Source of the DNA: a candidate division WOR-3 bacterium
GTDB taxonomy: Bacteria > Hydrothermota > Tepidihabitantia > Tepidihabitantales > Tepidihabitantaceae
DNA length: 29,518 bases
Direction of reading: 5' to 3'
Assembly (NCBI GenBank): GCA_965648905.1
Contig: CBFGIT010000030.1
Coordinates: 1 to 29,518, forward strand
The position numbers and the translations under genes were made by a program. A model generated the notes under the pieces. That model saw only the letters and a program-made list of their open reading frames with translations. It was not told where the DNA came from and searched no databases. Shown piece after piece: positions 6,026-29,348 of this stretch. Numbering within the stretch: position 1 is the first letter of the stretch; each line of letters opens with the position of its first letter.

Positions 6026-7507
6026 GTGAAGATAACGCTAATGCCCCGCAAGTCATGGACCGGACGCGTGCTGGCTGCGTTCATGCTCGAGGGCGAAAAG
6101 ACCCTGCTCGGTATGACCGCTGCTGAGAGCATGGAATTTGTCCGAGTCGCGGCCGAGGAGAAGTTTACCGGCCAGGCAAAGAAGACGTCGTTCATGCGCT
6201 ACGACTCGGGCGTGAGCAAACTGGTCCTCGTCGGGCTGGGCAGGCGGAAGGACACCACGTTGGATATCGTGCGTGCCGGTACGGCCAAGGCACTGAAGCG
6301 GGCCGAGGAAGTCGGCGCAGAGTCGGTCGGGCTGCTCTTGCCCGAGGGCAGGCTGGGGCGGCTTGAGGTCGCGGACTTTGCCTCAGCCGCAATCGAGGGC
6401 GCCATTCTGGGCAGCTATCGGTTTGCCCGGCATATGACACCTAAGCCGGATGACCCGAAGCCGGTCGCCGAGTTGGTCCTGGTTCTTGCCGGCAATCGTC
6501 CGGCGTCTGTCGGGTTGACGCGCACGGTGGATAGCGCGGTCGCTCTGGCCGATGCGGTCTGTTTCACGCGTGACTTGGTGAACGAGCCATCCAGTCTGAA
6601 GCCACCGGAGAAGATGGGTGAAATCGCCCTGACCTTGGCGCAGAAGGGGCGGGTTTCTGTCAAGGTTATGCACAAGGACGAACTCGAGAAGCTCGGCATG
6701 GGTGGGATTCTGCGGGTCGGCGCTGGTTCGCACGAGCCGCCGTGTCTTGTGCACCTGACCTACACACCAAAGGGCAAGTCCAGAAAGACCGTGGTGGTTA
6801 TCGGTAAGGGCATCACTTTTGATTCAGGCGGGCTGTCCATCAAGCCGGCCACCGGCATGGAGTACATGAAGGACGACATGGCCGGCGCGGCTTCGGTGCT
6901 CGGGTTGTTTAAGTGGCTGGGCACAGTTGAGCTGCCTGTAACCGTCCACGGGTTTGCGCCTCTGGCCGAGAACATGCCGGGCGGCGGCGCGCAGAAACCC
7001 GGTGACATCATTCGGCACTACAACGGCAAAACGGCTGAGGTTATCTCGACCGATGCCGAAGGCCGGCACCTGCTGGCCGACTGTCTTGCCTATGGTTCGA
7101 CCCTGAAACCGGACGTGATGATTGACGTGGCGACTCTGACCGGCGCCTGCGTCGTCGCGCTCGGCGATGAGTACTCGGCCCTGCTCGGCACTGACCAGAA
7201 GACGATCGACAAGCTCATCCGCCTGGGCGGGGAGCAGGGTGAGTTCTTCTGGCAGCTCCCGCTGCCCGAGCGGTACAAGGCTCAGCTCAAGAGCAGGGTT
7301 GCCGACGTGAAACACATCGGCAAGCCTGGCTCGGGCGGCACGATTACTGCGGGTCTGTTTCTGAAAGAGTTTGTCGCCGACGACGTGCCGTGGGTTCACT
7401 TTGACATCGCCGGTCCGTCGTTCACCAAGGAAGACTGGGACTATACTCCGGTCGGCGCAACCGGAATCCCGGTGCGGACTCTGGCCGCGTTCCTGCGGAG
7501 CCTCTAG
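6026..7507 (+). CDS. pepA: Leucyl aminopeptidase (M17 family)
   Basis: GKGITFDSGG, MKDDMAGAA, TDAEGR, DVATLTGAC and WVHFDIAG motifs. Confidence 0.95.
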   Translation: MKITLMPRKSWTGRVLAAFMLEGEKTLLGMTAAESMEFVRVAAEEKFTGQAKKTSFMRYDSGVSKLVLVGLGRRKDTTLDIVRAGTAKALKRAEEVGAESVGLLLPEGRLGRLEVADFASAAIEGAILGSYRFARHMTPKPDDPKPVAELVLVLAGNRPASVGLTRTVDSAVALADAVCFTRDLVNEPSSLKPPEKMGEIALTLAQKGRVSVKVMHKDELEKLGMGGILRVGAGSHEPPCLVHLTYTPKGKSRKTVVVIGKGITFDSGGLSIKPATGMEYMKDDMAGAASVLGLFKWLGTVELPVTVHGFAPLAENMPGGGAQKPGDIIRHYNGKTAEVISTDAEGRHLLADCLAYGSTLKPDVMIDVATLTGACVVALGDEYSALLGTDQKTIDKLIRLGGEQGEFFWQLPLPERYKAQLKSRVADVKHIGKPGSGGTITAGLFLKEFVADDVPWVHFDIAGPSFTKEDWDYTPVGATGIPVRTLAAFLRSL

Positions 7508-7539
7508 TGGCGATCAATTCTCGGAAGAGGAGTACAGTG

Positions 7540-9690
7540 ATGACCAGAGCGCTGATTGGGTTGTTGAGCTGTTCTGTATTGGTGCTGGCGATGCCGTTGC
7601 CTGAGTCCGGAGCACCGCCGCCGGAAGCGGTTCCGTTCGATGACGCCAGCCGGGTCGCCTTGAGCCTTGCGCGAGCCGAGTTCCCGGGCGCACGACTGGG
7701 CACGGTTGTGCCCTATGTTGACGAGTCGGGCATGACTGCGGCCTGGATGTTCCACTTCAGGACTGATGGTGGTATGTTTCCCGACTATGACCGGGTCGCG
7801 GATGAGGTGCTTGCCCAGCGCCAAACTTTGGCGCCGAACACCAATCTGACCTGCTGGACATCGCCCTACTGCTACGTGCTTGTCTCGGCACGCTATGACC
7901 GGCCGCCGGTCTGCCGCTTCGGCTACGGCAGCTCCGAGTACTACGCGCTCGGCCGCCCGGCGCTCAATGAGGCTCGGGCACTTCTGGGCGTTGATGCCCG
8001 GCTGTCGCGCATCTACTTTGTTTACCCGAACACCTATCTTGAGTTTGAAAACGGAGTCGGTCAACGTGTTGTCCTCTCCTTTCAGCCGAAGCGCGTCTGG
8101 TCATCGCGGGCGGACTTCGCGGAATACATAGCGGTCGAGCGGTCCGAGATGGAACGTCAGTACCCGGTGGATGAGCAGGCGGTCCGTGAGTGCCACCGCC
8201 GCGAGTGGGACCGAGCGCTGGTCGGTTACGGGCCGAGTTATGCCGACGTGTTCGTACCCAACGTGAGCCGGGCGCCGTTCTACGACTGGAGCTATGGATG
8301 CACGCCGACTTCAGGCGCGATTGTCCTGGGGTACATCGACCGCACCAGAGAATACGGCCGACTCGTAGACTGGTTTGCCCAGCGTCGTGACAACGTTGAG
8401 AATGAGATGGACTGGCAGATACCCAACGTGCAGCGGGAGTGTGCTCTGGCGATGTACACCGATACGAGTTACGGCGGGACGTATCTGCAGTACATCGCAC
8501 CCGGACTGGCAACGGTCGGGGCTGATAACGGCTACTCGTTCGAGGTAACCGATGTTCTGGGCGCGGAGTGGAACGACTGGGCCTGGGATACGATCACGGC
8601 GCAGATTGACTCGGGTCGGCCGATGGTCTGGTCTGCGACCTGGGAGCGGCATTCGCTGGCCTGTTTCGGCTACCGGACCGAAGGTCAGTTCCTGTATGTG
8701 CACAATACCTGGTGGCAGCCCGCGGCCTGGTGGTCTCATTCTGGGCCGAACTGGGCCCATGTTGCTGCCGTCAACCCGAGTGGAGGCGACCCGCACCAGT
8801 TGCATCTGGTCTACCCCAAGGGCGATACGAACTACAATTCGACGGGCAGGGGAGAAGTAATCTACGTCGGAGACACCTGCCTTGTCCGCTGGGACAATCA
8901 CGGCAATCCGGGTACGGCAGTGGATATCTATCTGTCGCAGAACGGAGGGCGCGATTGGCTGCAGATCGTTGACGACGCTCCGGACAATGGTTCCTACGCC
9001 TGGTACGTTTCCGAGGCCCTGACGAGCAATGATACAAACCGGTTCCGACTCGAGCAGTACAATGGCGCCACCTATACTGCGGCCGACGGTTCGTTCGGCA
9101 ACTTCCGATTCCAGCGCGAGCCGATGCCGCCAACTCACCTGGCTCCACCCAATGGCCTGCCGCTTCAGAACCCGCCGGTCGTGCTGGTGATTGATTCGAC
9201 CCGGGCCCGGTGCGACAGCGTCGAGTTCAAGCTGATACTCGGGGTTGATACCATCTGGCATCAGCTTGGCACGGCGTCGCGCTGTTCGCTGCCCGACAAC
9301 CTGTTCGAGCGCAATCGTACGTACAAGTGGACGACACGAAGCCACAACCGGTTCGGCTGGGGTTCATGGGCAGGCACGTGGTCTTTTCGGGTGATGTTCG
9401 GTGGGGTCGAGGAGGCACCAGGGTCGTTACGGCCACAGGAGCCTCGGCTGCCAGCAGTGGCGCGCGTAAGCGGCGGTGCAGTCATGTTGCCTGGTGCAGT
9501 GGCAGGCTCGAAGGTTGAGGTCTTTGATGCACTGGGGAACCTTGTCCGGGTGGTTCAGCCGGCTCAAGCAGGTGAGTCAGGTTGGGACCTGCGTGATGGT
9601 TACAGACGACGGGTTCAGACCGGCCTCTACTTCGTTCGGTTCGTGGCCGAAACCGGGACTCAAACTCGCAAGTTCGTCCTAGTCGACTAG
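7540..9690 (+). CDS. Secreted papain-fold cysteine peptidase (C39-like/C10-like) with propeptide-like N-terminus, Ig/Fn3-like domains and T9SS/FlgD-Ig-like C-terminal domain
   Basis: Signal peptide; catalytic-type WSYGCTPTS (Cys) and RHSLACFGY (His); CTD VFDALGNLVR...WDLRD...GLYFVR...KFVLVD; RBS GAGGAG before 7537/7540. Confidence 0.75.
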   Translation: MTRALIGLLSCSVLVLAMPLPESGAPPPEAVPFDDASRVALSLARAEFPGARLGTVVPYVDESGMTAAWMFHFRTDGGMFPDYDRVADEVLAQRQTLAPNTNLTCWTSPYCYVLVSARYDRPPVCRFGYGSSEYYALGRPALNEARALLGVDARLSRIYFVYPNTYLEFENGVGQRVVLSFQPKRVWSSRADFAEYIAVERSEMERQYPVDEQAVRECHRREWDRALVGYGPSYADVFVPNVSRAPFYDWSYGCTPTSGAIVLGYIDRTREYGRLVDWFAQRRDNVENEMDWQIPNVQRECALAMYTDTSYGGTYLQYIAPGLATVGADNGYSFEVTDVLGAEWNDWAWDTITAQIDSGRPMVWSATWERHSLACFGYRTEGQFLYVHNTWWQPAAWWSHSGPNWAHVAAVNPSGGDPHQLHLVYPKGDTNYNSTGRGEVIYVGDTCLVRWDNHGNPGTAVDIYLSQNGGRDWLQIVDDAPDNGSYAWYVSEALTSNDTNRFRLEQYNGATYTAADGSFGNFRFQREPMPPTHLAPPNGLPLQNPPVVLVIDSTRARCDSVEFKLILGVDTIWHQLGTASRCSLPDNLFERNRTYKWTTRSHNRFGWGSWAGTWSFRVMFGGVEEAPGSLRPQEPRLPAVARVSGGAVMLPGAVAGSKVEVFDALGNLVRVVQPAQAGESGWDLRDGYRRRVQTGLYFVRFVAETGTQTRKFVLVD

Positions 9691-9759: not shown

Positions 9760-12087
9760 TTAGCGGGTGACTAGGATCTTGGCGATTCTGTCCTGGCGTT
9801 TGACGAAGTAGACTCCGGGCGTGAGGGAGCCAACTTCGTTGGAACCCGGCTTGAGCAGGAGAAGTGTGCGTCCGGTTGCATCGAGGAGAGTTGCCGACGA
9901 TTCCTGACCGTCGTCTGCCGGAGTCAGATTGATAAATCCGCGGGAGACGGTAAGCGCGGGACGCGGCGAAAGGCCAGGGGAATGTGGTTCGGTGACCCCG
10001 GTCATGCTGTCGCGGAAGACCGAGATAGAGGAGTTGCCGTAGTTGGCGACATAGACCCGGTTGTCTTGTGGATGCCAGGCCATATCGACCGGCTGCAGAC
10101 CGGCCTGGAGTACGCTTCGTATCGAGTGGAGGCGCGCATCAATCACCGAGACCGTGCCGGTCGAATGGCAGCAGTAGACGGTCTTGTTCGCATCGTTGTA
10201 GAGCAGGCCGATGGGCCTTGGTGATACTGGTACAGTCGCGACCCACTGCCCGGTCGTGCCATCAATCACAGTCAGGTCGGCGCCGGCACGGTTCGCGCAG
10301 TAGACGAGGTTGCCTTCGGGCACGTGGAGCAGGGCCACAGGTTCCTGACCCACTCCAACGTTTGAGACGAGCGAGTCACCCCAGGCGTCGATGATGCTCA
10401 CGGTGTACGACTCGCGGTTGGCGCAGAATACGAGACCGCTTTGTGGATTGTAGCAGAGTGCGATTGGTGTGTCGCCGACCGCGATCGTGGCGCAGACAGT
10501 GTCGACCGAGCAGTTGATGACCGATACGGTCCGGCCCAGCGCATTAGCGCAGTAGACTCGGTTCTGAGTCGGGGCGGCGCAGAGCGCGACCGGCGCGTTA
10601 CCGACCGGGACCGATGCGATGGTCGTATCGAGTGAACCGGAGATGACGCTGAGCGCCCGCCGGGTCCGGCTGGTGACGTAGACCTTGTCCGCAGTTCGGT
10701 TGTAGCAGACCGCAAGGGGCGCGCCGCCAATCTTGGGCGTTGCGATGACGTTGCTCGACTGGCCGTCAATGATTGCCACGTCCGAACTGGCGTAGTTGAC
10801 GCAGTAGACCTTGTTTCTCTGGTCATTCCAGCAGAGTGCGCTTGGTTCGCGGCCGGTCTGGATACCGGCAATGACGGCGTTGGTCGGACAGTCAATCACT
10901 GCAACCATGCCAACTGCGCGGTTGGCCGAGTAGAGCAGGCGTCCGGTCGCGTTGTAGCAGAGGGCCTGGGGTTGGGCCCAGCTCGAGAGCACCGCAAGGG
11001 TTGCTCCGGACTGACCGTCGAGCACGGTCACCGTGTTGCCGGTGCGGCTGGCGCAGTAGACCCGGCCCGCGTCCGGGTTGAAGCAGAGTGCCACTGGTTC
11101 GTCGGCAACGGCGACCGACTCGATGACGGCATTGGTCGCGCCGTTGATGACCGAGACGCTGTCCGAGAGTTCGTTGGCACAGAAGACGCGGTTATGGACC
11201 GTGTCGCAGACCAGAGCGCGGGGATAGCGACCAACCCGAATCGTGGCAACGACCGCATTTGACGCGCCGTCAATCACGGTCAGCGTGCGACTTAGCTCGT
11301 TACCGCAGTACACCTTGTTGTTACGGGAATTGTAGGCGAGCGCGACCGGGCGTGACCCGGCTGGCCGGGAGGCAATCAGCGTGTTCGTCACGGCGTCAAC
11401 TATCCTGACGGAATCGCGCTGGTAGTCCGCAACGTAGACTTTGTTGTCGCGCGGGTTGTAGCACACGGCCGCAGCCTGACTGCCGACGGCAATCGTCGCT
11501 AGCACGGTGTCGGGAACGCAGTCAATGACCGAGAGCGTACCGGCATTCTTGTTGGCGACGAAGATGCGATTGTCAACCGTGTCGTAGACCAGGGCCTGCG
11601 GTGTCAGACCAACCGGCACGTGGCGCAGAACCTGATTGGACGCGGCGTCGATGACCGTGACGCTGGTGCTGACGTAGTTGGCGACATAGACCTTGTTACC
11701 GCGCGGGTCATAGGCCGCGGCGCACGGGCCACTACCGGTTGGCAAGGTGGCAATCACCGTGTTGGAGCCGGCGTCGATGATGGAGACGCTGTCAACCGCC
11801 CGATGGACAGCATAGACTCTGTTGCTCACCGGGTTGTAGCAAAGAGCGCTAACAGTAGACGTCACGGGAATAGTCATGGTCTGGCTGTTTGACGTGCCAT
11901 CAATGACGATGACCGAGTTGCCCGAGTCGCCGCCGACATAGACCGAGCCACTGCCCGAGGCGTAGACCAGGTTCTGCGGGTTGCGTGCCCCGCCGAACAA
12001 GATTGTCTGTTCCAGCCACTGGGCTCGAACCGCCGGAACTGAAGCGAGACAGAGCAGGCAGGTCAATACTGCGGACGTGGTTTTCAT
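9760..12087 (-). CDS. Secreted YncE/YVTN beta-propeller repeat protein (16 repeats) with T9SS-like C-terminal domain
   Basis: Signal peptide MKTTSAVL...VRA-Q; 16 repeats of ~42 aa (P.ALCYNP..NKVYCAN..S.TVSVID); C-terminus LLDATGR...PGVYFVK...KILVTR; RBS CAGGAGG before ATG 12087. Confidence 0.88.
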   Translation of the reverse strand: MKTTSAVLTCLLCLASVPAVRAQWLEQTILFGGARNPQNLVYASGSGSVYVGGDSGNSVIVIDGTSNSQTMTIPVTSTVSALCYNPVSNRVYAVHRAVDSVSIIDAGSNTVIATLPTGSGPCAAAYDPRGNKVYVANYVSTSVTVIDAASNQVLRHVPVGLTPQALVYDTVDNRIFVANKNAGTLSVIDCVPDTVLATIAVGSQAAAVCYNPRDNKVYVADYQRDSVRIVDAVTNTLIASRPAGSRPVALAYNSRNNKVYCGNELSRTLTVIDGASNAVVATIRVGRYPRALVCDTVHNRVFCANELSDSVSVINGATNAVIESVAVADEPVALCFNPDAGRVYCASRTGNTVTVLDGQSGATLAVLSSWAQPQALCYNATGRLLYSANRAVGMVAVIDCPTNAVIAGIQTGREPSALCWNDQRNKVYCVNYASSDVAIIDGQSSNVIATPKIGGAPLAVCYNRTADKVYVTSRTRRALSVISGSLDTTIASVPVGNAPVALCAAPTQNRVYCANALGRTVSVINCSVDTVCATIAVGDTPIALCYNPQSGLVFCANRESYTVSIIDAWGDSLVSNVGVGQEPVALLHVPEGNLVYCANRAGADLTVIDGTTGQWVATVPVSPRPIGLLYNDANKTVYCCHSTGTVSVIDARLHSIRSVLQAGLQPVDMAWHPQDNRVYVANYGNSSISVFRDSMTGVTEPHSPGLSPRPALTVSRGFINLTPADDGQESSATLLDATGRTLLLLKPGSNEVGSLTPGVYFVKRQDRIAKILVTR

Positions 12088-12104
12088 CGGGTCCTCCTGA
12101 CAAG

Positions 12105-12132
12105 ATGGTAGAACATCAGGAGCCAGTGTCAA
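12105..12132 (-). promoter_or_regulatory. Promoter of the YVTN propeller gene
   Basis: TTGACA-16 bp-TACCAT; the ORF track's TTG start at 12132 is this -35 box. Confidence 0.6.
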
Positions 12133-16272: not shown

Positions 16273-16387
16273 TATCGAGCAGTGAGACATGGCGAGCGGT
16301 TGAGATGGCAGCCGTTCCCCACAATGTAGAATAGAACTCGCCGGCCCGATACAGGGTTGCGTGAGTTGTTTGGCAGGAGGCCATGTG

Positions 16388-19300
16388 ATGCGGATTGCTG
16401 TTCTGGCATGTGTAGTACTTGAACTGGCGGTGGGGGCGACGCCGGTCACGTGGACGGGTGGTTTCAATGGCGGAAGTCTGTCGATTCAACCAGGGCCGAT
16501 TCACGTCGTGCACCAGGACATGGACGGCCGTCGGTTTGCGTCGGTTGGCATCGCGGGCGCCGGAGTCGGGGGCGATTACGGCACACCAGCCGTGCCATGG
16601 TTCCGGTATCTTGTCGAGGTGCCGCTCGGCGCCGAGGTCACGGTCGTAAGCGACGTGGGTATGTTGGATACAATGGTGCTCGAATCACCGCTGGCTCCGC
16701 GCCAAGAGCCGGTGCCGAAGTCCGGACCAGCCCCGTTGTTCTGCTATGACGCCAAGGCCTATGCTCAGGATAGTCTCCTTCCTACAATCAGTGCCCGTTT
16801 GACCGAGTTCGTCGAGGTACGGGGACACCGTATCGCCGTGATTGATGTCTTCCCGGCGGCGTACAACCCGGTTCGAAACATGCTGGTTACGGTCCAGGAG
16901 ATGAAGCTGCAGGTGGACTGGACTGGAGCGGACTGGGGAGCAACGCACGCGGCTCATCGTCGCTACGCTTCACCCGCGTTTGTCGGCCGGCTTGACCGGG
17001 TCGTGCTCAATTCCGAGCAATTCGCCTTTGATGATGGGCCGAGTCTACCGGTCGGGTACCTGGTGATTGTGCCGGATGACTGGGAGCCGAGCGTCCGGCC
17101 TCTGGTCGACTGGCGTCGGCGCAAGGGGTACAACGTGTTTGTGAGGACGTTAACTCAGGTCGGTGGCGGTTCGACAGATGCGGTCAAGGCGTACATCCAG
17201 AACGCTTATGACAACTGGCCGATCCCGCCGAGCTTCGTGCTCCTGGTCGGCGACGTGGACCGCATCAATTGTTTCACTGGTGGCGGTCAGGGAAGTCCGC
17301 CGACTGACTTGAACTTCGCCTGTGTAGCCGGAACCGACTACCTGCCGGACATTGACGTGAGCCGGCTCTCGGTGGCAAGTCAGGCACAGCTCGACAGTTT
17401 TGTCAGTAATGTCGTGCGCTATGAGCAGGTGACCGGAACCGGTGGGACCGGATGGCTGCAGCGCGCATACTTCGTCGCATCGTCCGATGGCGGCAACCAC
17501 CAGGTCGCCGAGCGCACCCACGCTCATGTGATGGGCCGGCTTCGGCCCAGAGGTGTGCTCTGTGACTCCCTATGGCTCTATTACGGAACCGGCACACCGA
17601 TTCCCAGCGCGGTCAATTCCGGACGCGCCTGGGTGACATATTCGGGCCACGGCAGCGAGAACGCCTGGGCCGACCCCAGTCCGGACTTCGACCTTGCCGC
17701 AGTACACGGGCTCGCTAATGTTGACCTGATTCCTTATGTTCAGACCTACGCCTGCTATTCGGGCAACTTCGCTTCGTCGAGCTATCCTGAATGCTTCTCC
17801 GAGGCGTGGATAAGGAATGGCCGACGCGGCGCGATTGCGCACGTTGCCTCCTCAGTGACCTCGTATTGGACCGAGGACGACACGCTTGAACGCCGAGTCT
17901 TCGACTGCATGTTCGACTCGGCCGCGACCTGGATCATGGGCGGGCTGAACAAGGCCAGACTCTGGTACTTCCGCCAGATGGGTTCAACTCCGACCACACG
18001 CCGTTACCTCGAGATGTACAACCTGATGGGCGACGGTGCAATCGACATCTTCACTCGGGAACCCAAGAGGCTATCGGTCGTTCACCCGTCGGTGATTCCG
18101 CTCGGGGTCTATGCGCTTCCCGCATCGGTCTTTACCGGGCAGGCGCCGGTTCCGAATGCGCTGGTCTGTGCCACGGCGAAGCACGACTCCACGGTGTTTG
18201 CTGCCGGCTACACCGATGCTGCCGGTCAGGTTGTTCTCTCGATTACCACCCTGCAGCCGGACTCAGTCTACTTGACAGTCACGGGCCACAATCTCGAGCC
18301 ATATCTGGGTGCTGCGCCGGCCCTGCCTTCGGCCGGTCCGTATGTCGCATATCTGCGTCATACCGTGGACGACTCTGCAGGCGGCAACCGTGACGGTGTC
18401 ATCAATCCGGGCGAGACAGTCAACCTGCCGGTCTGGGTGAGAAACTGGGGTGGCGTCGAAGCAGAGGGGGTTCGGGCCTGGCTGCGAGCGACCGACTCGA
18501 GCGCAGTGGTGCTCGACTCCCTGCGTGACTTCGGCAGCGTAGGCGCTGGAGATTCGGCTTACACCGGCCGGACCGGGTTCGGGTTCCGGGTTGCGCCGAG
18601 TTGTACCAACCAGCAAGTGCTCCGGTTCACGCTTGTGGCACAGGATCGCTGCGATTCCACCTGGGTTTCCTCGCTTGCCCTGACCGTCGGCACGCCGGTA
18701 GTGCGGTTCCTGGGCTACCGGGCTGACGACCCGCCGCCGGGCGGCAACGGCAACGGCATGATTGACCCGGGCGAGAACGGCGACATCATCGTCACCCTGC
18801 GCAACCAGGGCCGGGGCAACGCCTACGGCGTATTCGCAACTCTGCGTTCGGGCGACGCGCGGCTCGTGGTGCTCGACTCGGTCGGCTCGTTCGGCGACAT
18901 CTTGGCCGACTCGACCGGGAGCAATGCGGCCGACCGGTTTTCGGTGCGAGCCGACGGGACGATTCCCCGCGAGACTAGAGTCGCGTGTACGCTTGCGGTC
19001 TGGCTCGGCGCAGTCACGGAACTGCACACTTTTCAACTGGCGGTCGGAACGATCCGAAGCTGTGACCCGATTCCGGATGGCCCGCGCACACCGGCCCGTT
19101 ACTACGCCTACGACATTACCGACACCGCCTATTCCGAAGCACCGGACTTCGTCTGGCACGAATTGCGCGGCATCGGCACGCGGCTGACACTGGGCGACGA
19201 TGAAACCCGGGTCGTGAGTCTGCCCGAGTCGTTTGGTCCGCTGGTCTGGTACGGTCAGAGCTTCAGTCAGCTCTCGGTCTGCGGCAACGGCTGGGTCGCG

Positions 19301-20047
19301 CCCGGGTCAACCACATCCTCGGCCTATGCCAACACCGCGCTGCCCGACGGCACGAACCCGGGAGTTATCGCTTGCTGCTGGGACGACCTGTATCCGCCTC
19401 AGGGCGGCGGCGTGCTGTACTATTTCGATGAGGCCCGGCGGCGTTTCATCGTCGAGTGGGATTCGGTCCACTATTACTCGCCCCGTGAACAGTGGGACTC
19501 GTACCAGCTCATATTCTGCGACAGCTCAATGCGCACCCCGACCGGAGATAACGTGGTCGTCGCCCAGTATCTGACCGCGAACAACTACGGCTCGGTCACG
19601 GTCGGCATCGAAGACCCGCAGTCGACCATCGGCATCAACTACCTCTGTAACGGAGTCTACCATCGAGGCGCAGCAGCAGTTACACCGGGCATGGCGATCA
19701 AGTACACGACCAGTCCGCCCCAGCCGCGCGTCGGTGCGACCGAGGCCGACCATCTGCCCGGAAAGCCGACGCGGCTCAGTCTGTTCGGTGGTGCACCCAG
19801 TCCGTTCCGTTCCCGCACCCGGCTATCCTACGCCGTGCCGCGGTCGATGCGACTGCAACTGGCGGTCTACGACCGCGCCGGCCGGACGGTGACCGTGCTG
19901 GTTGACGGGCCGGTCGAGCCGGGAAACCACGTCGTATGCTGGAATGGAACCGACGCCCGCGGTCGACGCGTGCCCCAGGGCATCTACCTGTTCCGGCTGA
20001 GAAGCGACGACGTCACTCTAGTACAGAAGACCGTGCTGGTTGACTGA
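16388..20047 (+). CDS. Gingipain-like peptidase family C25 with propeptide, two Ig-like repeats, a C-terminal beta domain and FlgD-Ig/T9SS-like CTD
   Basis: Signal peptide; LVDWRRRKGY, FVLLVGD, His-Cys dyad YSGHGS...YACYSG, YNLMGD; two DD..GGN.[DN]G.I.PGE repeats; CTD VYDRAGR...WNGTD..GRRVPQGIYLFRL...KTVLVD; RBS CAGGAGG. Confidence 0.9.
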   Translation: MRIAVLACVVLELAVGATPVTWTGGFNGGSLSIQPGPIHVVHQDMDGRRFASVGIAGAGVGGDYGTPAVPWFRYLVEVPLGAEVTVVSDVGMLDTMVLESPLAPRQEPVPKSGPAPLFCYDAKAYAQDSLLPTISARLTEFVEVRGHRIAVIDVFPAAYNPVRNMLVTVQEMKLQVDWTGADWGATHAAHRRYASPAFVGRLDRVVLNSEQFAFDDGPSLPVGYLVIVPDDWEPSVRPLVDWRRRKGYNVFVRTLTQVGGGSTDAVKAYIQNAYDNWPIPPSFVLLVGDVDRINCFTGGGQGSPPTDLNFACVAGTDYLPDIDVSRLSVASQAQLDSFVSNVVRYEQVTGTGGTGWLQRAYFVASSDGGNHQVAERTHAHVMGRLRPRGVLCDSLWLYYGTGTPIPSAVNSGRAWVTYSGHGSENAWADPSPDFDLAAVHGLANVDLIPYVQTYACYSGNFASSSYPECFSEAWIRNGRRGAIAHVASSVTSYWTEDDTLERRVFDCMFDSAATWIMGGLNKARLWYFRQMGSTPTTRRYLEMYNLMGDGAIDIFTREPKRLSVVHPSVIPLGVYALPASVFTGQAPVPNALVCATAKHDSTVFAAGYTDAAGQVVLSITTLQPDSVYLTVTGHNLEPYLGAAPALPSAGPYVAYLRHTVDDSAGGNRDGVINPGETVNLPVWVRNWGGVEAEGVRAWLRATDSSAVVLDSLRDFGSVGAGDSAYTGRTGFGFRVAPSCTNQQVLRFTLVAQDRCDSTWVSSLALTVGTPVVRFLGYRADDPPPGGNGNGMIDPGENGDIIVTLRNQGRGNAYGVFATLRSGDARLVVLDSVGSFGDILADSTGSNAADRFSVRADGTIPRETRVACTLAVWLGAVTELHTFQLAVGTIRSCDPIPDGPRTPARYYAYDITDTAYSEAPDFVWHELRGIGTRLTLGDDETRVVSLPESFGPLVWYGQSFSQLSVCGNGWVAPGSTTSSAYANTALPDGTNPGVIACCWDDLYPPQGGGVLYYFDEARRRFIVEWDSVHYYSPREQWDSYQLIFCDSSMRTPTGDNVVVAQYLTANNYGSVTVGIEDPQSTIGINYLCNGVYHRGAAAVTPGMAIKYTTSPPQPRVGATEADHLPGKPTRLSLFGGAPSPFRSRTRLSYAVPRSMRLQLAVYDRAGRTVTVLVDGPVEPGNHVVCWNGTDARGRRVPQGIYLFRLRSDDVTLVQKTVLVD

Positions 20048-22380: not shown

Positions 22381-22635
22381 ATGGCGACGAAGAAGAACGG
22401 TTCAGAGGCGGTTGGCTTTGAGCAGGCGCTGGCCGAGCTTGAGAGCATCGTCAAGCAGCTTGAGGCTGGCAACCTGGCTCTGGAGAAGTCGTTGGAGCTC
22501 TTTGAACGGGGGGTCGGACTGGCACGGCTGTGCAAAGAGAGGCTGGTCCAGGCCGAGCTGAAGGTGAGTCAGTTGGTCAAGGACAAGGAGGGATTGTTCT
22601 CCGAGGAACCGTTCGAAGAGGGCGGGAGTCGCTAG
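22381..22635 (+). CDS. xseB: Exodeoxyribonuclease VII small subunit
   Basis: FEQALAELESIVKQLE.GNL.LE.SL.LFERG..L...C...L..AE.KV; RBS AGGAGG. Confidence 0.95.
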   Translation: MATKKNGSEAVGFEQALAELESIVKQLEAGNLALEKSLELFERGVGLARLCKERLVQAELKVSQLVKDKEGLFSEEPFEEGGSR

Positions 22636-24584
22636 GGCAGGACCGTGAGCTTGGCCGCCGGGCCATGGGCCGGCATGACCAAGACGAAGTAGCCGCCAGC
22701 CGGCATCGACCTAAGGTCGAGCGCGAATGACGAAGTCCGAATGTCGAATGACGAACGAAAGACCAGGTGGCCCGAGGTATCGTAGACGCGGAGCGCAAAC
22801 GGCGGGGCGCGAGAGGCGAAAGGCGCCCTCACTACCGTCTGCCCGCGGCAGGGGTTGGGCTCGATTGTGAACGCGGGGTCGGCTGGCAGCCTGGAAGGAT
22901 GCGGTTCCTCACGGGCCGTGAGCTCCACAGTCTCAATGCGCAGAGCCCGACGTGCCACCAGCGGTGCGGACACCCGCGGATACCAGTTGTTGCAGGTGTG
23001 GGTCAGGCCGCTGGAGCCGTCCCGGTTCTGGAGGCCGACAGTTGCCTGCGAGAAGTTGTTCGCGGTGCGGAACTGAATCATCATTGAGTTGTCGCCGGTC
23101 GGTGTGGTGACCGTCTGGTCGTAGAGCTGGAACTGAACCTTTTCCCAGTCACGCACGTGGCCGAAGTAAGGGACTGAGTCATACTCGACGATGAACCGGT
23201 GATTGGCGGTGTCATGGTAGTACCAGATTGAGCCGAACGCAGTCGGGTCAAGGTCGTCCCACTGCACGGCCACGATGTTCGGCGGGGCGTTCTGATAAGG
23301 CAGCGCGACGTTGACAAAGTCGCACCGGTCGGTCCAGCCCGCAGCGACCCAGCCATTGGAGCAGACCGAAATCGTGTCGTAGTCCACGCCATAGTAGCGC
23401 CACGGACCGAATCCCTCGGGCAGGGCAAGCTGTTGTGTTTCGTCGCTGCCCAGGTCGATTCGCACGCCGATACTGCGAAGCTCAAGCCAGTCGTAGACCG
23501 GCAGCCGGGCATAGCCGGAGTCGGTGTAGTCGTAGATGCGATAGCCGCCGATGTCCGGGCCTGCGGGCAGATTGGTTGAGTCGCCGACGAGGAGCGGTAT
23601 CAGAACCGTGTCGTGATAGCCGCTGCCTGAGAGTACAAGATGGCAGTACGCCGGCATCTCGACCGGGGCACCGGCCGCGGCCCGCACCCGGAACCGGTCG
23701 ATGCCTGAGGATGTTGTCTCGCCCTCACCGACCGCGGGGAAGCTTCCGTCCGGGTCGAGCACTGTCAGGTAGGGGCTGTCCGACTCAAGCCGGCCGGTGA
23801 GCGGGCCGACCGGCGCGCCGGTGTTCCTGAGCACGATGGCAATGTCCGCTTCCTCGTCCGGGTCGAGCTTGGCGTTGACGATACCGCCCGTGTCGTCAAC
23901 CCGGAAAGAGAAGAACCGCAGGTATGGAGCTTCTCTGGTCCAGACGGACAGGTTGTCGGCGAAGACCTTCGCCGCGGGATAGACGCTTCAGCAGTTGTCG
24001 AGGACGAAGCCGAGCAAATACACTCGGATCGCCTTGACCGACTCCGGAACCACACCCGGGAGATTGGAGCTGACTTCCTCGGCAACGTTGAACCGGTAGT
24101 CGTGCCATTGCAGCGAGTCAGGCGCGGGCACGAGATGAAGAACCGATGTGCTGGTCCAGGGGCAGCCCGCGGTGGCGGAATAGATCCGGGTCTCGCCGAT
24201 GACCGAATCGCGACTGTCCAGATACTCGAGTCCGGCGCAGGCCGCGGCAAAGAGCGATTCGCGCTCGGTCTTGGACGAGAGGCGGCAGGAAACGGCGTAA
24301 CCGAGGTCGAGAGTGACAACGCTGAACTTCTGGGACAGCTTCATCCCCTGATGGAGCATCTTGTGCAGCATCACTTCCCGGTCCCGGTCCGGAGCGATAT
24401 CGTGCCGCCAGCGCAGGCGGCAGTTGCCGGTGTCGGAGTACATCCCCCAAGTATCGAGTTGCCAGCCGAACTCGGGCGCGAGTTCGAAGTCGCCGTTGAT
24501 CACAAGGTCACGACCGGACGCAAGCGCGACGAGCAAAGCACACAGCGTCGTCAGTGTCGCCGTTCGCCATTCGCGGTTCGTCAC
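22632..24584 (-). CDS. Predicted secreted selenoprotein (~650 aa, Cys198-Sec199): CBM-like jelly-roll, Ig-like repeat, C25-associated beta domain and T9SS-like CTD
   Basis: GTG 24584 starts a signal peptide. The frame reads ...GFVLDNC-TGA-SVYPAAKVFADNLSVWTREAPYLRFFSFRVDDTGGIVNAKLDPDEEADIAIVLRNTG... straight into the 22632..23834 ORF; a SECIS-like hairpin follows the TGA. Confidence 0.75.
22724..22758 (+). repeat. CGAA-type heptamer array inside the CTD coding region
   Basis: cgaatga cgaagtc cgaatgt cgaatga cgaacga. Confidence 0.65.
23957..23990 (-). promoter_or_regulatory. In-frame UGA plus bacterial SECIS-like stem-loop
   Basis: mRNA: UGA-13 nt-CGGCGAAG-GU-CUUCGCCG; the apical sequence AGGUCU follows a 19-nt spacer after UGA. 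Confidence 0.72.
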
Positions 24585-24595
24585 TCGCGGTTCGC
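24557..24595 (-). repeat. CGAA-type heptamer array spanning the start of the selenoprotein gene
   Basis: Minus strand: cgaaccg cgagtga cgaaccg cgaatgg cgaacgg cga. Confidence 0.6.
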
Positions 24596-25170
24596 TAGTA
24601 GATCGGCTGACCGACGCGGACCGTGTAGGTGTTTGTACGGTACTCAACCTTGACCGCGTCGGAACCGACCTCGACGATTCGGCGGCCTTCAAGGTCATCA
24701 CCTGGCTTGAGTCGTTTCTCACCGACCAGGGCATAGCGCGAACCGCTGGCATCGACGATGATCGCCTTCAGCTCGTGGGGACTTGAGCTGCTGCGCCGGC
24801 TCGAACTGCGGGTGAAGCCACCCGACTCGCTTCGCCGTGTGCGGCTCGGGCGGCCGCGCTGGCGGTCCTCCCGACCTGATTCGCTTCGGCGACTGCGGCG
24901 CGCGGCGACCCGGTCTTCCTGTCGCGAGCGGCGCGAGGCTTTTGCGACCGAGGATGATTTGGTGCGTTTCTTCGGTGTTTCTTCACCGGCCGCGGGCTTG
25001 GCCCGGGTCGGGGTCGGCTGGCTCCTGCCCGTGGTCAGCAGTACCACGACAATGATAACAACAACCGCCGCACCAATCGCCATGTAGAGGTACTGATTCG
25101 CCGCTCCTTTCTGGGCGCCCCGGGCACGCGGTCGCTGCGGGGCGGCAGCGGTCTTGCGTGAAGCCATCAT
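24595..25170 (-). CDS. Single-TM protein with Arg/Ser-rich linker and C-terminal GspB/PilP/GspC-HR-like beta domain
   Basis: TM segment YLYMAIGAAVVVIIVVVLL; C-terminus LKAII...YALVGEKRLKPGDDLEGRRIVEVGSDAVKVEY; RBS AGGAGGTG. Confidence 0.65.
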   Translation of the reverse strand: MMASRKTAAAPQRPRARGAQKGAANQYLYMAIGAAVVVIIVVVLLTTGRSQPTPTRAKPAAGEETPKKRTKSSSVAKASRRSRQEDRVAARRSRRSESGREDRQRGRPSRTRRSESGGFTRSSSRRSSSSPHELKAIIVDASGSRYALVGEKRLKPGDDLEGRRIVEVGSDAVKVEYRTNTYTVRVGQPIY

Positions 25171-25239
25171 CGTACACCTCCTAGTTTCACGTCAGGTTGT
25201 GCGACCTGGCTAGCTCTGCCTGACAGAATTCCATACTAC

Positions 25240-25267
25240 AGCTTACCGTGCAAATCAAGCCGGTCAA
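25240..25267 (-). promoter_or_regulatory. Promoter for the GspB-like and selenoprotein gene pair
   Basis: TTGACC-16 bp-TAAGCT. Confidence 0.45.
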
Positions 25268-25270
25268 GCG

Positions 25271-28200
25271 CTAGAAGTCGGCGCGCAGCTCGGATGAGAA
25301 TCGGTGGTCTGCTGGCCGGTCCGGACGGTCGGAGAAACCGTACCGGGCCGAGGCGTTGAGGACGTTGCTGAATGAGTGGCTGAGTTCGAGTCCCAGCATG
25401 GGGTTCAGACCGGTGGGACTGGAAAGCGCCAATTCGTAGGGCAGGTCGGGAACCGACGCGGTCCGGCGAACCAGTTCAATCGAGGTACGGATGCGGGTGC
25501 GCGAGCCGATGGTCGTGGACCGGGCGAGTCCGCCACGCCAGACATCGAGCGTGAAGCGTCCCAGCTCGGGATAGGTGACGGGCTCGGCGACCAGAAGTCG
25601 TTCAAAGCCGGTAGTCAACTCCAGCCGCAGTCGCTCACCGAGTACCGGGTTGAATTCCGCCTTGCCGTGAAGTTCCTCGTGGTCGGTCAGGCCGGAGTTC
25701 AACGTCCGTTGTGCCCGGCCCGCCTCAAGACATGAACGGAGCTGAAGCTCGCGGAACCAGTCGGAGTTGAGTTCGACATAGCCGATTGAACGGGCCGAGG
25801 CGAGGCCGGTTGCCGCCAGAGTGCGGTCGTGACTTGCAAGGTAGTTCGCTCCCAGGATCGGGTTCACGGCCGGTTCGAGTGCTCGCACCGACAGCCGCAG
25901 GTCCCAGCGGACGTCGCTTGACAACTCGCCCGATTCGGTCCCGGCGCGGTTCAGACTGAAAGAACCGCTCAGGGCCGCGGGCCGTGCGGTCGAGACTTCG
26001 CCTGAAGCCGAGGCGGAGAGGGTGCGAGCCGCGGTAGTCCGGCCGGTCGTAATCACCACGCGCTCGTAGTCACCATCCGGGTCTGAGACGTAGCGGCCGG
26101 TAACCGTGTCTCTTCGGAACGTGCCTTGGCCCGGTCCGACGTAGCGGAAGAACTCGTCGCGCAGTTGCACGCGCCGGAACGACTGGCCCAGGTCAGTCAT
26201 GAATCTGAGCCCGGCCCGGGGTGCGAACGTGGCCCGGATGCTGCCCAGAAGCTGATGCCAGTCATCCTGAGCACTGAGCAGAAACCTGCGGTCCTGGTGG
26301 GCTGCGCGGCCGTCAAGGTCCAGAGCCGGCAAGGGTTTCCATCCGACTGTCACCTGGACCAGTCGAGCGCGGCTGGTCCTGTTCCAAGCTCCGCGGCTGG
26401 AGTCAGGTTCCTCGTACTCAGTGAGCCGGGCCGATACGCCGCCGGCCGGACGTCCGACTGACCGACGGGTCGAGCTGTCGACTGCGAGGTCAAGACCGGC
26501 AAGCCAGGAGCGCGACCGTTCCTCGGGCCGAGCTTCGTTCTGCCATCCGGCCCGGGGCAGCAGCGGTCCGAGCCGGGGCGCGGCATGAACGTCGTGACGC
26601 GTAACCTGACCGGCGTGTGCTCCTTCATACTGCAGCCAGCCGAGTCGTGCCGACCCGCCCAGCCGCGTCACCGCTCTCCGGTCAGTCCTTGCCAGCCGTC
26701 CGGCATCAGCCGCAAACTCCAGAAACCGCCAGGGCCGGGCGTGTGCTGCCAGTTCGTCGCTGCTCGCGCGCTGGTCCTCAGTTGTCCCGCCCCAGCGGTA
26801 GCTGAAATCAACAATCGGGCTGGCACCGGGTAGTGCAAGACCACCCCCCTGCATATGGCGGCGGTACCCAAAGCCCCAAGTCGAGTCTTGGTACGCAGCC
26901 GAAAGGTTGAGCCCGGAAGCTCCCGGCCCGACCGGAGACGGGGCGAACAGGTTGAGGTTTCGGCGCTGAAACGCGCCTTCGACCCGGGTTGAAAGCCGAG
27001 CTGCATTCAGCCCGACCCGGGCGTAGACCAACTCATCCTGCTCGGGCAACCGCACCCGCACCCGCGCGGCATAGTTGCCTGCGCCCGGGCCGACATATAG
27101 GTACGCGAACAGCGTGTCGTTGTACACGTAGTCTCCGACCGAGTCCCCCACCAGGGTAAACTGGACGTTGTAGTCGCCGCTATCCGGGCAGTAGAGGAAG
27201 TGGTCGGCTTCACGGACATAGCTGCCGTTGCCCGAGCCGACGTAGGTCTCGCCCGGCAGCCAGGCTCGGCTTGTGTCCTGGCCGATGCTGGCCAGATAGT
27301 CCTGTTCCTCCGGACTGAGGTCAAGAGCCAGGTTGCGTGACCGGTTGTCATTCTCGCGGAAAAGCCCCAGACCGAGGTCGAACAAGGCCGGGCGATAGTC
27401 CGCCACCACCGCTGCTCCGGTGCGCTCATAGTCACCGGCCGCAAACTGGAACGTTGCCTCGATTCGCGACCGGTGGCTGATGATATTCCGGTCGGTGAAT
27501 ACCAGCTCGCCGCCTGCGTAGTCAATGGTGTAATCTCCGTCCCAGCCCCGAGTCATGCGCCGGCCATCAAGATAGACCGCTTCGCTGCCCGGCACGACCG
27601 TTGCGGCCTGTCCGTTCGGCGCCAGCAGATAAGGGCCTTGGGAACCATCGGTCCCGAGCAGGGAGACCCGGCCGAACTGGCCCCGGGGCGTGGCATAGCC
27701 GACCGTCACGTTGGCGCCGCCGGTCTGACCTGAAACCAGCGCGCCCTTTGCTCGACGTTCGATTCGGCCGAACGACCCTGCAGGCACCGAGACGTCAACA
27801 TCGCCGAACGAGCCCTGCCAGGACCGAGCTTTGAGACTGATGAGCAGCCGGTCAAGCTCCTGAATGTCGCGGGTCGTGCCCTCTGCCGGAATCGGCGAGC
27901 TCTGGTCCGAGAGCTCGGCCTCGACCCTGATTCCCTCGACCTCGCCCGAAAGCGCTACTCGGGTCGCCTGGTCAATGCCGCTGCCTTCGGTTCCGCCGAA
28001 CGAGACTCCGACCGTCTTGCTGCCCGAGAGTTCCAGACCCGCACCCGGTCCAGTCGTGTCAATGACCGCAAGCACGGTGCTGTCGGCCTGCAGTGCCGGA
28101 ACCGGCTGATTCCGGGACGCGCTGCGGGCACGGGACGGGCCGCCGAAATGCAGGCACCGTCGGGTGACGGTTATGACCGCGCCGGCTGCCGGTCTCGTCA

Positions 28201-28564
28201 GTAGCCAGACCCGTCCGTGGGCGGGGTCGAAAAGGTAGCGAGACCGGTCCAGGACGCGACCGTCGACGTGCACGGTGTCGGTGCCGATGACGGTCAGTTC
28301 TTCGGGCAACCAGAACACCGCGCTCGACCCATCGGCAACGAACACGGTTTGACACCGCTCGCCGATTAGCTCGGCTCGGCACGAATCGTGCCCCCGGGTC
28401 GGAGAAGGCACGCCGAACAGTTCGTGGGGCAGCAGCCCGACGGCAAACACGAGAGCGCCCGCCCGGACCAGTGCCGCGACCGGTGCGGCGAGAAGCCCGA
28501 GCCGCCAGGGTCGGGTCGACTTACAGTTGCGGCAGAACGTACGACAGGACTCGGGTTCCGGCAT
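25271..28564 (-). CDS. Large (~1100 aa) outer-membrane beta-barrel protein of an FCB-type conserved family with SprA-like motifs; start uncertain
   Basis: SGSKTVGVSFG...LSDQSSPIPAEGTTRDIQELDR, GPYLL...GSEAVYLDGRRMTRG...DYTIDYAGGELVF; long amphipathic beta region; BAM-type terminal Phe (ELRADF). Confidence 0.65.
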   Translation of the reverse strand: MPEPESCRTFCRNCKSTRPWRLGLLAAPVAALVRAGALVFAVGLLPHELFGVPSPTRGHDSCRAELIGERCQTVFVADGSSAVFWLPEELTVIGTDTVHVDGRVLDRSRYLFDPAHGRVWLLTRPAAGAVITVTRRCLHFGGPSRARSASRNQPVPALQADSTVLAVIDTTGPGAGLELSGSKTVGVSFGGTEGSGIDQATRVALSGEVEGIRVEAELSDQSSPIPAEGTTRDIQELDRLLISLKARSWQGSFGDVDVSVPAGSFGRIERRAKGALVSGQTGGANVTVGYATPRGQFGRVSLLGTDGSQGPYLLAPNGQAATVVPGSEAVYLDGRRMTRGWDGDYTIDYAGGELVFTDRNIISHRSRIEATFQFAAGDYERTGAAVVADYRPALFDLGLGLFRENDNRSRNLALDLSPEEQDYLASIGQDTSRAWLPGETYVGSGNGSYVREADHFLYCPDSGDYNVQFTLVGDSVGDYVYNDTLFAYLYVGPGAGNYAARVRVRLPEQDELVYARVGLNAARLSTRVEGAFQRRNLNLFAPSPVGPGASGLNLSAAYQDSTWGFGYRRHMQGGGLALPGASPIVDFSYRWGGTTEDQRASSDELAAHARPWRFLEFAADAGRLARTDRRAVTRLGGSARLGWLQYEGAHAGQVTRHDVHAAPRLGPLLPRAGWQNEARPEERSRSWLAGLDLAVDSSTRRSVGRPAGGVSARLTEYEEPDSSRGAWNRTSRARLVQVTVGWKPLPALDLDGRAAHQDRRFLLSAQDDWHQLLGSIRATFAPRAGLRFMTDLGQSFRRVQLRDEFFRYVGPGQGTFRRDTVTGRYVSDPDGDYERVVITTGRTTAARTLSASASGEVSTARPAALSGSFSLNRAGTESGELSSDVRWDLRLSVRALEPAVNPILGANYLASHDRTLAATGLASARSIGYVELNSDWFRELQLRSCLEAGRAQRTLNSGLTDHEELHGKAEFNPVLGERLRLELTTGFERLLVAEPVTYPELGRFTLDVWRGGLARSTTIGSRTRIRTSIELVRRTASVPDLPYELALSSPTGLNPMLGLELSHSFSNVLNASARYGFSDRPDRPADHRFSSELRADF

Positions 28565-29348
28565 CGAGCACGACCAGGGTCGAACTGAGAACGGCAAAGC
28601 CGACCGGGCTGGAGCAGCCCGGCAGCCTGAAGCCGGTGGTCCGGCCCCGGGCAAGAGTCCAGACTTCGGGGATACCGGTCTCCATCAGGTAGACCGTGCC
28701 GCGGTCGTCGGACTCAGCAATGTCACAACCGTCGGGAATACGGTCAGTACCGGTCAGTACGCCGGCACGGTTGAAGTGAACCATGTGTCCGTTGCCTGAG
28801 ATGACGCAGAACCGTCCGTCAGGCATGGTCGCCAGTGCGCCAGGATTCGACAGCTCGGATTCGGAAAGAAAGCGACGGCTCTCACCGAACACGGTCTTGT
28901 GCCAGACGACCTTGCGGCTTGCATCACTGACCAGCATCTCACCGGGCGCAAAGCTGGTCATGCCGGCAACCTCGACGTTGCCCAGCCAGGAACCAAGCTC
29001 CAGTTTCTCTTTTGACATGCGCCAGACAACGCGCGAGTCCCAGATGTAGTAGTAGAACCGGTCGGCCCTGACTCCGCGCGGCCCAACCAGCCTTCGGCCA
29101 AGAGGGATTGTCTCACCGGGCACGAGTCGCGCCGACAAGAGTACCAGTCGGTCCCCGCCCGCATCAAGCACGACGACCCGGTCGCCGTCACGGCACAGAC
29201 CAGCGGCCGGAGTAGCGAGGAGGAGTGAATCCGCGGGCAGCAAGGTCAGCTCTGGCCGGCTCGCGGTCATGCGGATGGTCCCGGGACAGCCGGCAACGAA
29301 GACGGCCAGACACAGCGCAAGGATAGGGACCGGTTTCTTCACAGTCAT
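28521..29348 (-). CDS. Lipoprotein with NHL/6-bladed beta-propeller-like repeats
   Basis: Lipobox VAGC after a hydrophobic stretch; repeats of P.G[LV]...[VL][VL].D..[GS].R[VL]. Confidence 0.7.
   Translation of the reverse strand: MTVKKPVPILALCLAVFVAGCPGTIRMTASRPELTLLPADSLLLATPAAGLCRDGDRVVVLDAGGDRLVLLSARLVPGETIPLGRRLVGPRGVRADRFYYYIWDSRVVWRMSKEKLELGSWLGNVEVAGMTSFAPGEMLVSDASRKVVWHKTVFGESRRFLSESELSNPGALATMPDGRFCVISGNGHMVHFNRAGVLTGTDRIPDGCDIAESDDRGTVYLMETGIPEVWTLARGRTTGFRLPGCSSPVGFAVLSSTLVVLDAGTRVLSYVLPQL

Follow-up and report, generated by a model that had tools for sequence, protein, structure and literature searches.

A gene of a candidate division WOR-3 bacterium is interrupted by an in-frame TGA, shortly after which its transcript could fold into a small, perfect hairpin. 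Does this hairpin act as a bacterial SECIS that has the UGA read as selenocysteine (Sec), or does the gene simply end there? We have followed this question in the window, i.e. the whole stretch of 29,518 nucleotides analyzed here (contig CBFGIT010000030.1), and in relatives of the gene within the same genome, the phylum and the sequence databases. We consider it highly probable that the hairpin recruits SelB and that the UGA is decoded as Sec, which would join the two annotated fragments into a 650-residue, likely exported protein. Its Sec is predicted to occupy a surface loop of a lectin-like beta-sandwich, where it may form a reversible selenium-sulfur pair with a neighboring cysteine. The observed basis of this mechanism is the in-frame TGA, the hairpin, their conservation, the covariation and the Sec genes of the genome. 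In the proposed sequence of events, SelB with its Sec-tRNA would almost certainly bind the GGUC loop and insert Sec199, while without selenium translation would terminate, and the product would have neither the final core strand nor the tail for export.

The interrupted gene and its hairpin

The current annotation splits the gene into two fragments at the TGA, and the first in-frame start after it lies 52 codons downstream. The features of the read-through gene are collected in Table 1, counted from the GTG that the signal-peptide-like stretch suggests as the start; farther upstream, at 24752, there is also an in-frame ATG. A search for near-length homologs of the whole protein found nothing, because database entries end at the TGA, and the full protein, C-terminal tail included, has no NCBIfam match. 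The middle region gives a weak NIDO match in two of 46 homologs. A search of positions 22400-25400 turned up no promoter of sigma-70 type. Upstream on the same strand lie two genes, one for a membrane-anchored protein of 191 residues (24595-25170) and one for an outer-membrane-like protein of 1127 residues (25271-28654) with a weak SprA stretch (E 0.003). Since both are also found upstream of the orthologs in many relatives, an operon with the selenoprotein gene is suggested.

Table 1. Features of the read-through gene, in window positions
Feature	Position	Strand	Remark
Read-through gene, 650 aa with TGA as Sec, GTG 24584 to TAG	22632..24584	minus	
Signal-peptide-like N-terminus: basic start, hydrophobic stretch, ALASG	24513..24584	minus	judged by eye
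Domain carrying the Sec, residues 24-220, predicted beta-sandwich of CBM-like fold	23925..24515	minus	
Cys198 codon immediately 5' of the TGA (Cys-Sec dipeptide)	23991..23993	minus	Cys before TGA in 82/155 homologs
Putative Sec codon, in-frame TGA, U199 counted from GTG 24584	23988..23990	minus	TGA co-located in homologs
Spacer from UGA to stem, 13 nt (AGCGTCTATCCCG)	23975..23987	minus	
Putative SECIS hairpin CGGCGAA[GGUC]UUCGCCG, 7 bp and 4-nt loop, encodes A-A-K-V-F-A-D	23957..23974	minus	
Middle region, residues 219-562, module common to many proteins of the lineage	22899..23930	minus	
T9SS-type C-terminal sorting-domain-like tail	22674..22859	minus	Por_Secre_tail (PF18962) 20.9 bits, cut-off 27 bits

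The initial annotation had described a perfect inverted repeat beginning 13 nt past the UGA, and the minus strand, a strand not named there, indeed reads CGGCGAAG-GT-CTTCGCCG at 23974-23957, with AGGTCT beginning 19 nt past the TGA (hairpin DNA CGGCGAAGGTCTTCGCCG). The proposed AGGUCU apex stands, while the 2-nt GU loop implied by the repeat was rejected, as it cannot form: in the RNAfold prediction, 6-7 bp enclose a loop of four nucleotides, GGUC (23967-23964), which starts 20 nt past the UGA. In Escherichia coli, SelB reads the GU of the apex, and the bulged U17 has a role in SelB binding. The E. coli fdhF gene, whose UGA140 is read by SelB, resembles the window in that a hairpin within the open reading frame follows just past an in-frame UGA and carries the apex A[GGUC]U. 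In NC_000913.3, the fdhF AGGTCT follows its TGA by 17 nt, in line with the roughly 17 nt of the initial annotation, whereas the distance in the window is 19 nt; the bulge of the fdhF upper stem is missing from the window hairpin, as had also been pointed out. The window stem is a perfect 7-bp helix with neither the bulged U nor a conserved lower stem of the strict fdhF type, and its host protein is not a formate dehydrogenase.

A broader yardstick is the consensus bacterial SECIS of PMC13188914, which, as given in the legend of its Fig. 2A, has a loop of 3-9 nt on a stem of 4-16 bp, a G at loop position one or two, usually with G or U after it, 16-37 nt between UGA and loop, and an MFE of at most -7.5 kcal/mol; PMC4605307 describes stems of 6-8 bp and a conserved G about 20 nt from the UGA. 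The window hairpin fits all four constraints of this consensus, with its 4-nt GGUC loop, its 6-7 bp, its distance of 20 nt and an MFE between -11.0 (38 nt) and -16.7 kcal/mol (61 nt). Judged by its sequence, the element belongs among the ordinary bacterial SECIS elements, as a new one rather than a strict copy of that of fdhF.

Taken alone, the single hairpin is weak evidence, little beyond chance, and its stability is ordinary. Its RNAfold z-scores are -0.36, -0.73, -0.93 and -0.04 in four folding windows, and 2,941 of 100,000 synonymous re-codings of AAKVFAD (2.9%), drawn with the codon usage of the genome, yield the identical stem and loop. The nucleotide-level evidence, which the initial annotation had held to be independent of the protein, is so only in part: A-K-V-F-A written in common codons already favors the stem. 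These figures are what could be said for a real stop, with two genes or a pseudogene around it and the hairpin a by-product of the AKVFAD peptide and codon bias, a reading that we regard as extremely improbable in view of the family. It is this family-wide evidence, and not the single copy, that gives the hairpin its significance.

Conservation and covariation of the hairpin

The genome (3.0 Mb) encodes eight paralogous Sec domains, and all eight have a TGA at the same place followed by the same hairpin. Conversely, each of the eight copies of the family hairpin in the genome stands 17 or 20 nt past an in-frame TGA. A looser hairpin rule is satisfied after 27 of 93,297 TGA triplets genome-wide, compared to 1.3-4.4 per 10,000 after other triplets; eight of the 27 belong to the Sec-domain family. 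Among 155 TGA-bearing homologs, the loop is GGUC in 143 and AGUU in eight. The spacer sequence is unconserved, and its length shifts by whole codons, which places the loop at 17, 20, 23 or 26 nt. Scripted as rules, the consensus bacterial SECIS of PMC13188914 is satisfied by the window hairpin and by 106 of 108 homologs; what sets the family apart from this consensus is that its stem sequence is highly conserved across the phylum and that residues of a core beta-strand change in concert with the stem. The combined DNA pattern of TGA and hairpin occurs in 25 of 41 genomes of the class, its reversed control once. No such hairpin is present in the three TGA-less homologs whose DNA was examined (L051, L132 and L119), and one further homolog (L124), which has its TGA further upstream, is missing the hairpin. 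A covariance model of the family hairpin proved family-specific: its sole match is the hairpin of the window itself (35 bits), and it recognizes neither fdhF (none at E<=10) nor selD nor the other candidate genes described below.

For the counts of covariation, codons and tree changes, we omitted L135-L195, which had been fetched by the hairpin-encoded peptide pattern, and L124, which lacks the motif. The 75 distinct hairpins are paired in 93.3% of cells, with 54 two-sided changes and a covariation of 0.372, the underlying structure having been derived from the same sequences, which favors it. Covariation exceeded 500 of 500 shuffles on four of five measures, while the pair count was reached by 117 of 500; slid controls were 22-62% paired, and the real hairpin lies above all of them. 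The compensatory changes that the initial annotation had named as a check on the hairpin do occur, and the stem is kept in the TGA-bearing genes.

Because the stem covaries, K-V-F at the apex repeatedly becomes E-V-S or R-V-L. In 107 hairpins, the codons flanking the apical Val encode K/F 65 times, E/S 23 times and R/L 13 times, with the rarer pairs E/F (three) and R/F (one) being wobble-compatible and Q/C and V/S seen once each; K/S or K/L never occurs in this set. On an IQ-TREE quick tree, from which post-TGA residues were left out, E/S needs eight changes, at least five of them forced by well-supported branches, and R/L needs three, at least two of them forced by strong branches. Within the hairpin, third codon positions show a fixation of 87-96%, which drops to 54% and 50% for the two Asp codons that follow, and the apical Val is GTC in 101 of 107 cases, compared to a genome usage of 46%.

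This pattern bears directly on the possibility of a real stop. Amino acids swap in pairs that preserve the stem, the post-TGA strand belongs to the predicted sheet of the domain (see below), the next in-frame start is 52 codons away, and TAA or TAG never replaces the TGA among the matches listed. On these grounds, the pseudogene and two-gene readings were rejected.

Distribution of the family and decoding of its TGA

A profile of 37 domains, searched against 251 genomes of the phylum, found the domain in 91 of them, with up to eight or nine paralogs per genome. One TGA is present in 149 of the best 150 matches, beyond which 73 weaker ones follow, and in 15 of the 18 matches from the five genomes with all matches listed. 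The corresponding figure for all distinct domains fetched, 155 of 158, is not an unbiased prevalence, as L057-L116 were chosen from the listed profile matches. The NCBI labels of the family members read candidate division WOR-3, with other records labeled Stahlbacteria, Cloacimonadota, Eisenbacteria and Krumholzibacteriota. A short sub-family (L050 at G000:C27, L120, L130 and L134) has about 220 residues, ends some 27 residues past the Sec and shows no secretion tail, and one clade (L059-L066, L091, L093, L096 and L097) carries C-U-x-x-H-C, the most metal-site-like motif of the family.

Beyond the phylum genomes, 403 of 1.84 billion database representatives match at E<=0.001. The best 150 representatives hold 152 domains, of which 120 stop at the Sec position, 19 are stop-free and 13 are otherwise partial. 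The stop-free group includes one clear Sec/Cys pair, P0007 (a cluster of two), with Cys at the Sec position; most of the 19 have unrelated residues there, and therefore neither Sec nor Cys appears to be needed for the fold. Five stop-free domains (P0051, P0074, P0092, P0100 and P0116) are found in long proteins, one of them named from a Thermoplasmata archaeon, and mostly have no Cys or Sec at the site; they are a possible outgroup of the family.

Turning to the machinery, the window's own genome is 99.6% complete and contains selA, selB with SelB-wing domains, selC and selD, with a tRNA-Sec of 72.2 bits and anticodon TCA. Its two selD genes have one TGA each (G000:C8:88040-90884, minus strand; G000:C4:87631-88554, plus strand). 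One of them lies directly downstream of selB, and in the other AGGUCU stands only 7 nt past the UGA, with further hairpins following. The SECIS reading of the initial annotation thus finds support on several sides: the agreement with the consensus constraints, the compensatory changes, the lack of the hairpin in three TGA-less homologs and the presence of the Sec machinery.

Across the phylum, selA is found in 105 of the 251 genomes, among them 86 of the 91 that carry the domain, and 141 of the 146 selA-negative genomes are without the domain; the genomes are kin, and these counts are not independent. As for the five domain-bearing genomes with no selA match, G022 has selB and tRNA-Sec, G249 has selB and G236 has tRNA-Sec, while neither selA nor selB over the cut-off nor a strong tRNA-Sec was found in G058 (76% complete) and G191 (96%, about 300 contigs). 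On five contigs (G208:C233, G238:C48, G050:C37, G034:C133 and G030:C14), a family gene lies within about 4-12 kb of selA.

These distributions also bear on whether the UGA could be read as Trp, Cys or Gly, be it through a leaky stop stimulated by the hairpin or through a variant code. Such a reading would suit the Gly, Ser and Thr that are common around the site, the scarcity of Cys homologs and the TGA gene that G058 and G191 still carry without clear Sec genes. Against this, the domain tracks selA, one Cys homolog exists (P0007), the only TCA-anticodon tRNA examined is tRNA-Sec, and the GU apex and the spacing of 17-26 nt suit SelB, going by the consensus of PMC13188914. Moreover, TGA is an ordinary stop in this genome, where it ends 335 of 802 long ORFs; a variant genetic code was rejected for this reason, and we regard readthrough with any residue other than Sec as very improbable.

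Several other genes of the genome, among those listed in a genome scan, are candidate selenoprotein genes. L196 (G000:C3:95969, minus strand) and L197 (G000:C21:22924, minus strand) are TlpA/ResA-like thioredoxin genes with an in-frame TGA in UxxC, and they share a hairpin, GCGG[AGUUA]CCGC at 16 nt, a signal peptide and a FlgD/T9SS-like tail. L198 (G000:C11:21813, minus strand) encodes an FG-GAP protein with SG-U-C at an in-frame TGA and a hairpin with A[GGU]U at 20 nt. L199 (G000:C1:78387, plus strand) and L200 (G000:C10:62914, plus strand) encode BNR/sortilin-type propellers with EGSG-U-G at an in-frame TGA; the loop of their predicted hairpin is UCA, without GU. Finally, L201 (G000:C16:1978, plus strand) encodes an unannotated, secreted-looking protein without Pfam or NCBIfam match, with H-C-U and the hairpin loop CGUGU. 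The window apex is not shared by all of these putative elements: the loops differ, and two have no GU. The label 'fdhF-type' of the initial annotation therefore describes the window apex only. The variety of the candidate loops would fit a SelB that is tolerant of variety.

The Sec-bearing domain and the possible role of its selenium

AlphaFold predicts the domain to be a beta-sandwich (pLDDT 94.9, with Sec modeled as Cys), in which the Sec belongs to the loop that leads from strand 162-171 to strand 181-193. The last strand of the predicted sheet lies past the TGA and is encoded by the SECIS itself. The closest solved structures, with Z from 14.8 down to about 10, are carbohydrate-binding modules and their relatives; they include 5w6h (Z 14.8, rmsd 2.5, 145 residues aligned), 8xmz and 4d0q (Z 13.2) and 2e33, Fbs1 (Z 10.6), with CBM-like folds at Z 12-15. 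On the sequence level, the domain has an N-terminal NGDFE motif and a weak profile match to 5x7o (E 0.006). None of the 37 members matches CBM_4_9 (PF02018) at the cut-off, one of them touching it at E 0.0081, and likewise these domains have no Pfam, NCBIfam or PDB-sequence match at the cut-off, nor any NCBIfam match below E 0.018. The predicted fold is CBM-like and resembles the galactose-binding-domain-like sandwiches (CBM4/9, CBM16, CBM61, tailspike CBMs and Fbs1), from which the family differs in an identity of 6-17% to the structure matches and in the Sec and Cys of its tip loops. A shared fold shows no function.

According to PMC4603797, the beta9-beta10 loop of Fbs1 holds the sugar-binding residues Tyr279 and Trp280. 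By alignment offset (model 1-195 against chain 124-297), we infer that the Sec loop corresponds to this loop. The strand order further suggests that the loops with Cys55, with His-Lys-Met-Leu-His, with the C-W-P of the paralogs, with Cys141 and with Cys198-Sec199 would all lie at one end of the sandwich. The Cys before Sec and the Cys of the C-W-P loop nearly exclude one another: in a tally of 154 domains, from which L124 was again omitted and whose counts, being from kin, are not independent, 71 have only the Cys before Sec, 52 only the Cys in the C-W-P loop, 11 both and 20 neither, and 153 have a Cys in at least one scored loop. Judging from these sequences, it looks as though a sulfur partner for Sec were always required.

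Two uses of such a pair can be distinguished. At the tip of the sandwich where ligands would bind, Sec199 may combine with Cys198 or, in paralogs, with the C-W-P Cys into a cell-surface site that is redox-active or binds soft metals, a reading that we put forward tentatively. It is also possible, though we have more doubts here, that the inserted Sec has a structural or incidental role and, through a stable Se-S or Se-Se bridge, keeps a sugar-binding loop of a true lectin or adhesin in place without redox cycling or metal binding. The CBM-like fold, the alignment of the Sec loop with the Tyr279/Trp280 loop of Fbs1 and the stop-free homologs without Cys at the Sec site would agree with such a bridge. 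However, the TGA is kept in 149 of the best 150 matches at the price of constraining five codons, and Cys homologs are rare, which is unexpected were any bridge enough. Likewise, the motifs near the Sec, C-U-x-x-H-C and H-x-C-U, resemble metal or redox sites, and within the clade of the window gene we noted no conserved pair of aromatic residues in the Sec loop. Given the pairing pattern of Sec and sulfur, with a Cys in 153 of 154 domains, we prefer a Se-S site at the surface, for redox chemistry or soft metals, to a bridge with a structural role only.

A location at the cell surface would require export, which probably proceeds via the signal peptide and type IX secretion. As in known T9SS cargo (Por_Secre_tail), the start is signal-peptide-like and the genome encodes SprA (456 bits summed, cut-off 200); the match of the C-terminus to a sorting tail scores under the cut-off (Table 1). 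The searched text of PMC13188914 lists no T9SS cargo as a selenoprotein. The closest counterparts in the literature, SaoL, SaoB, SaoC, SaoX, HgcA and MbdU, are CU-dipeptide or exported selenoproteins (bioRxiv 10.1101/2022.07.06.499078; PMC13188914, Table 1). According to these sources, they share with the Sec-domain family the Cys-Sec dipeptide and the truncation of database entries at the UGA, and they include exported lipoproteins whose Cys/Sec clusters have been proposed to bind metals. The Sec-domain family, in contrast, has a different fold, a T9SS-like tail, eight to nine paralogs at most and no shared gene neighborhood.

We therefore compared the family with existing catalogs. The comparison covered Table 1 of PMC13188914, Pfam and NCBIfam 20.0. 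The family is in none of the three, and the table contains neither a CBM-like family nor one of T9SS cargo. A literature search returned no paper on WOR-3 selenoproteins, nor on selenocysteine in connection with a CBM, an in-frame UGA or type IX secretion, and a search by title and start of abstract returned none on the Sec-domain family. On the sequence evidence, the gene very likely encodes a selenoprotein, from a likely exported family with a predicted CBM fold that these catalogs do not include. Methods for selenoprotein search rely on Cys homologs, and according to PMC12013277 families without them may be filtered out. The present family, with its predicted CBM-like fold and T9SS-like tail, has up to eight or nine paralogs per genome, at least 403 database clusters and hardly any Cys form, and would therefore be mis-annotated as hypothetical proteins of roughly 190 residues in many assemblies. 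Catalogued bacterial selenoproteins are mostly thioredoxin-fold proteins or metabolic redox enzymes, and the family raises the question of what role selenium plays on a surface-binding module. Its hairpins also offer a natural set of SECIS variants, with the loop at 17, 20, 23 or 26 nt and with compensatory swaps that change amino acids, for the study of SelB recognition beyond E. coli.

More speculatively, and with considerable doubt about the claim as a whole, these proteins could form a phylum-wide, T9SS-secreted family of 'selenium lectins' with almost no Cys versions, in which the ligand loops of a carbohydrate-binding fold were made into a surface Sec-Cys site for redox-gated or covalent ligand capture or for soft-metal scavenging, while base pairing in the RNA would govern how the final core beta-strand evolves. 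The family would then be one of several exported selenoprotein families through which these uncultured anaerobes place a large share of their selenium outside the cell. The window itself holds further T9SS-type cargo, namely a C25 peptidase (16361-20047, plus strand), a C39-like peptidase (7507-9690, plus strand) and a YVTN beta-propeller (9760-12132, minus strand).
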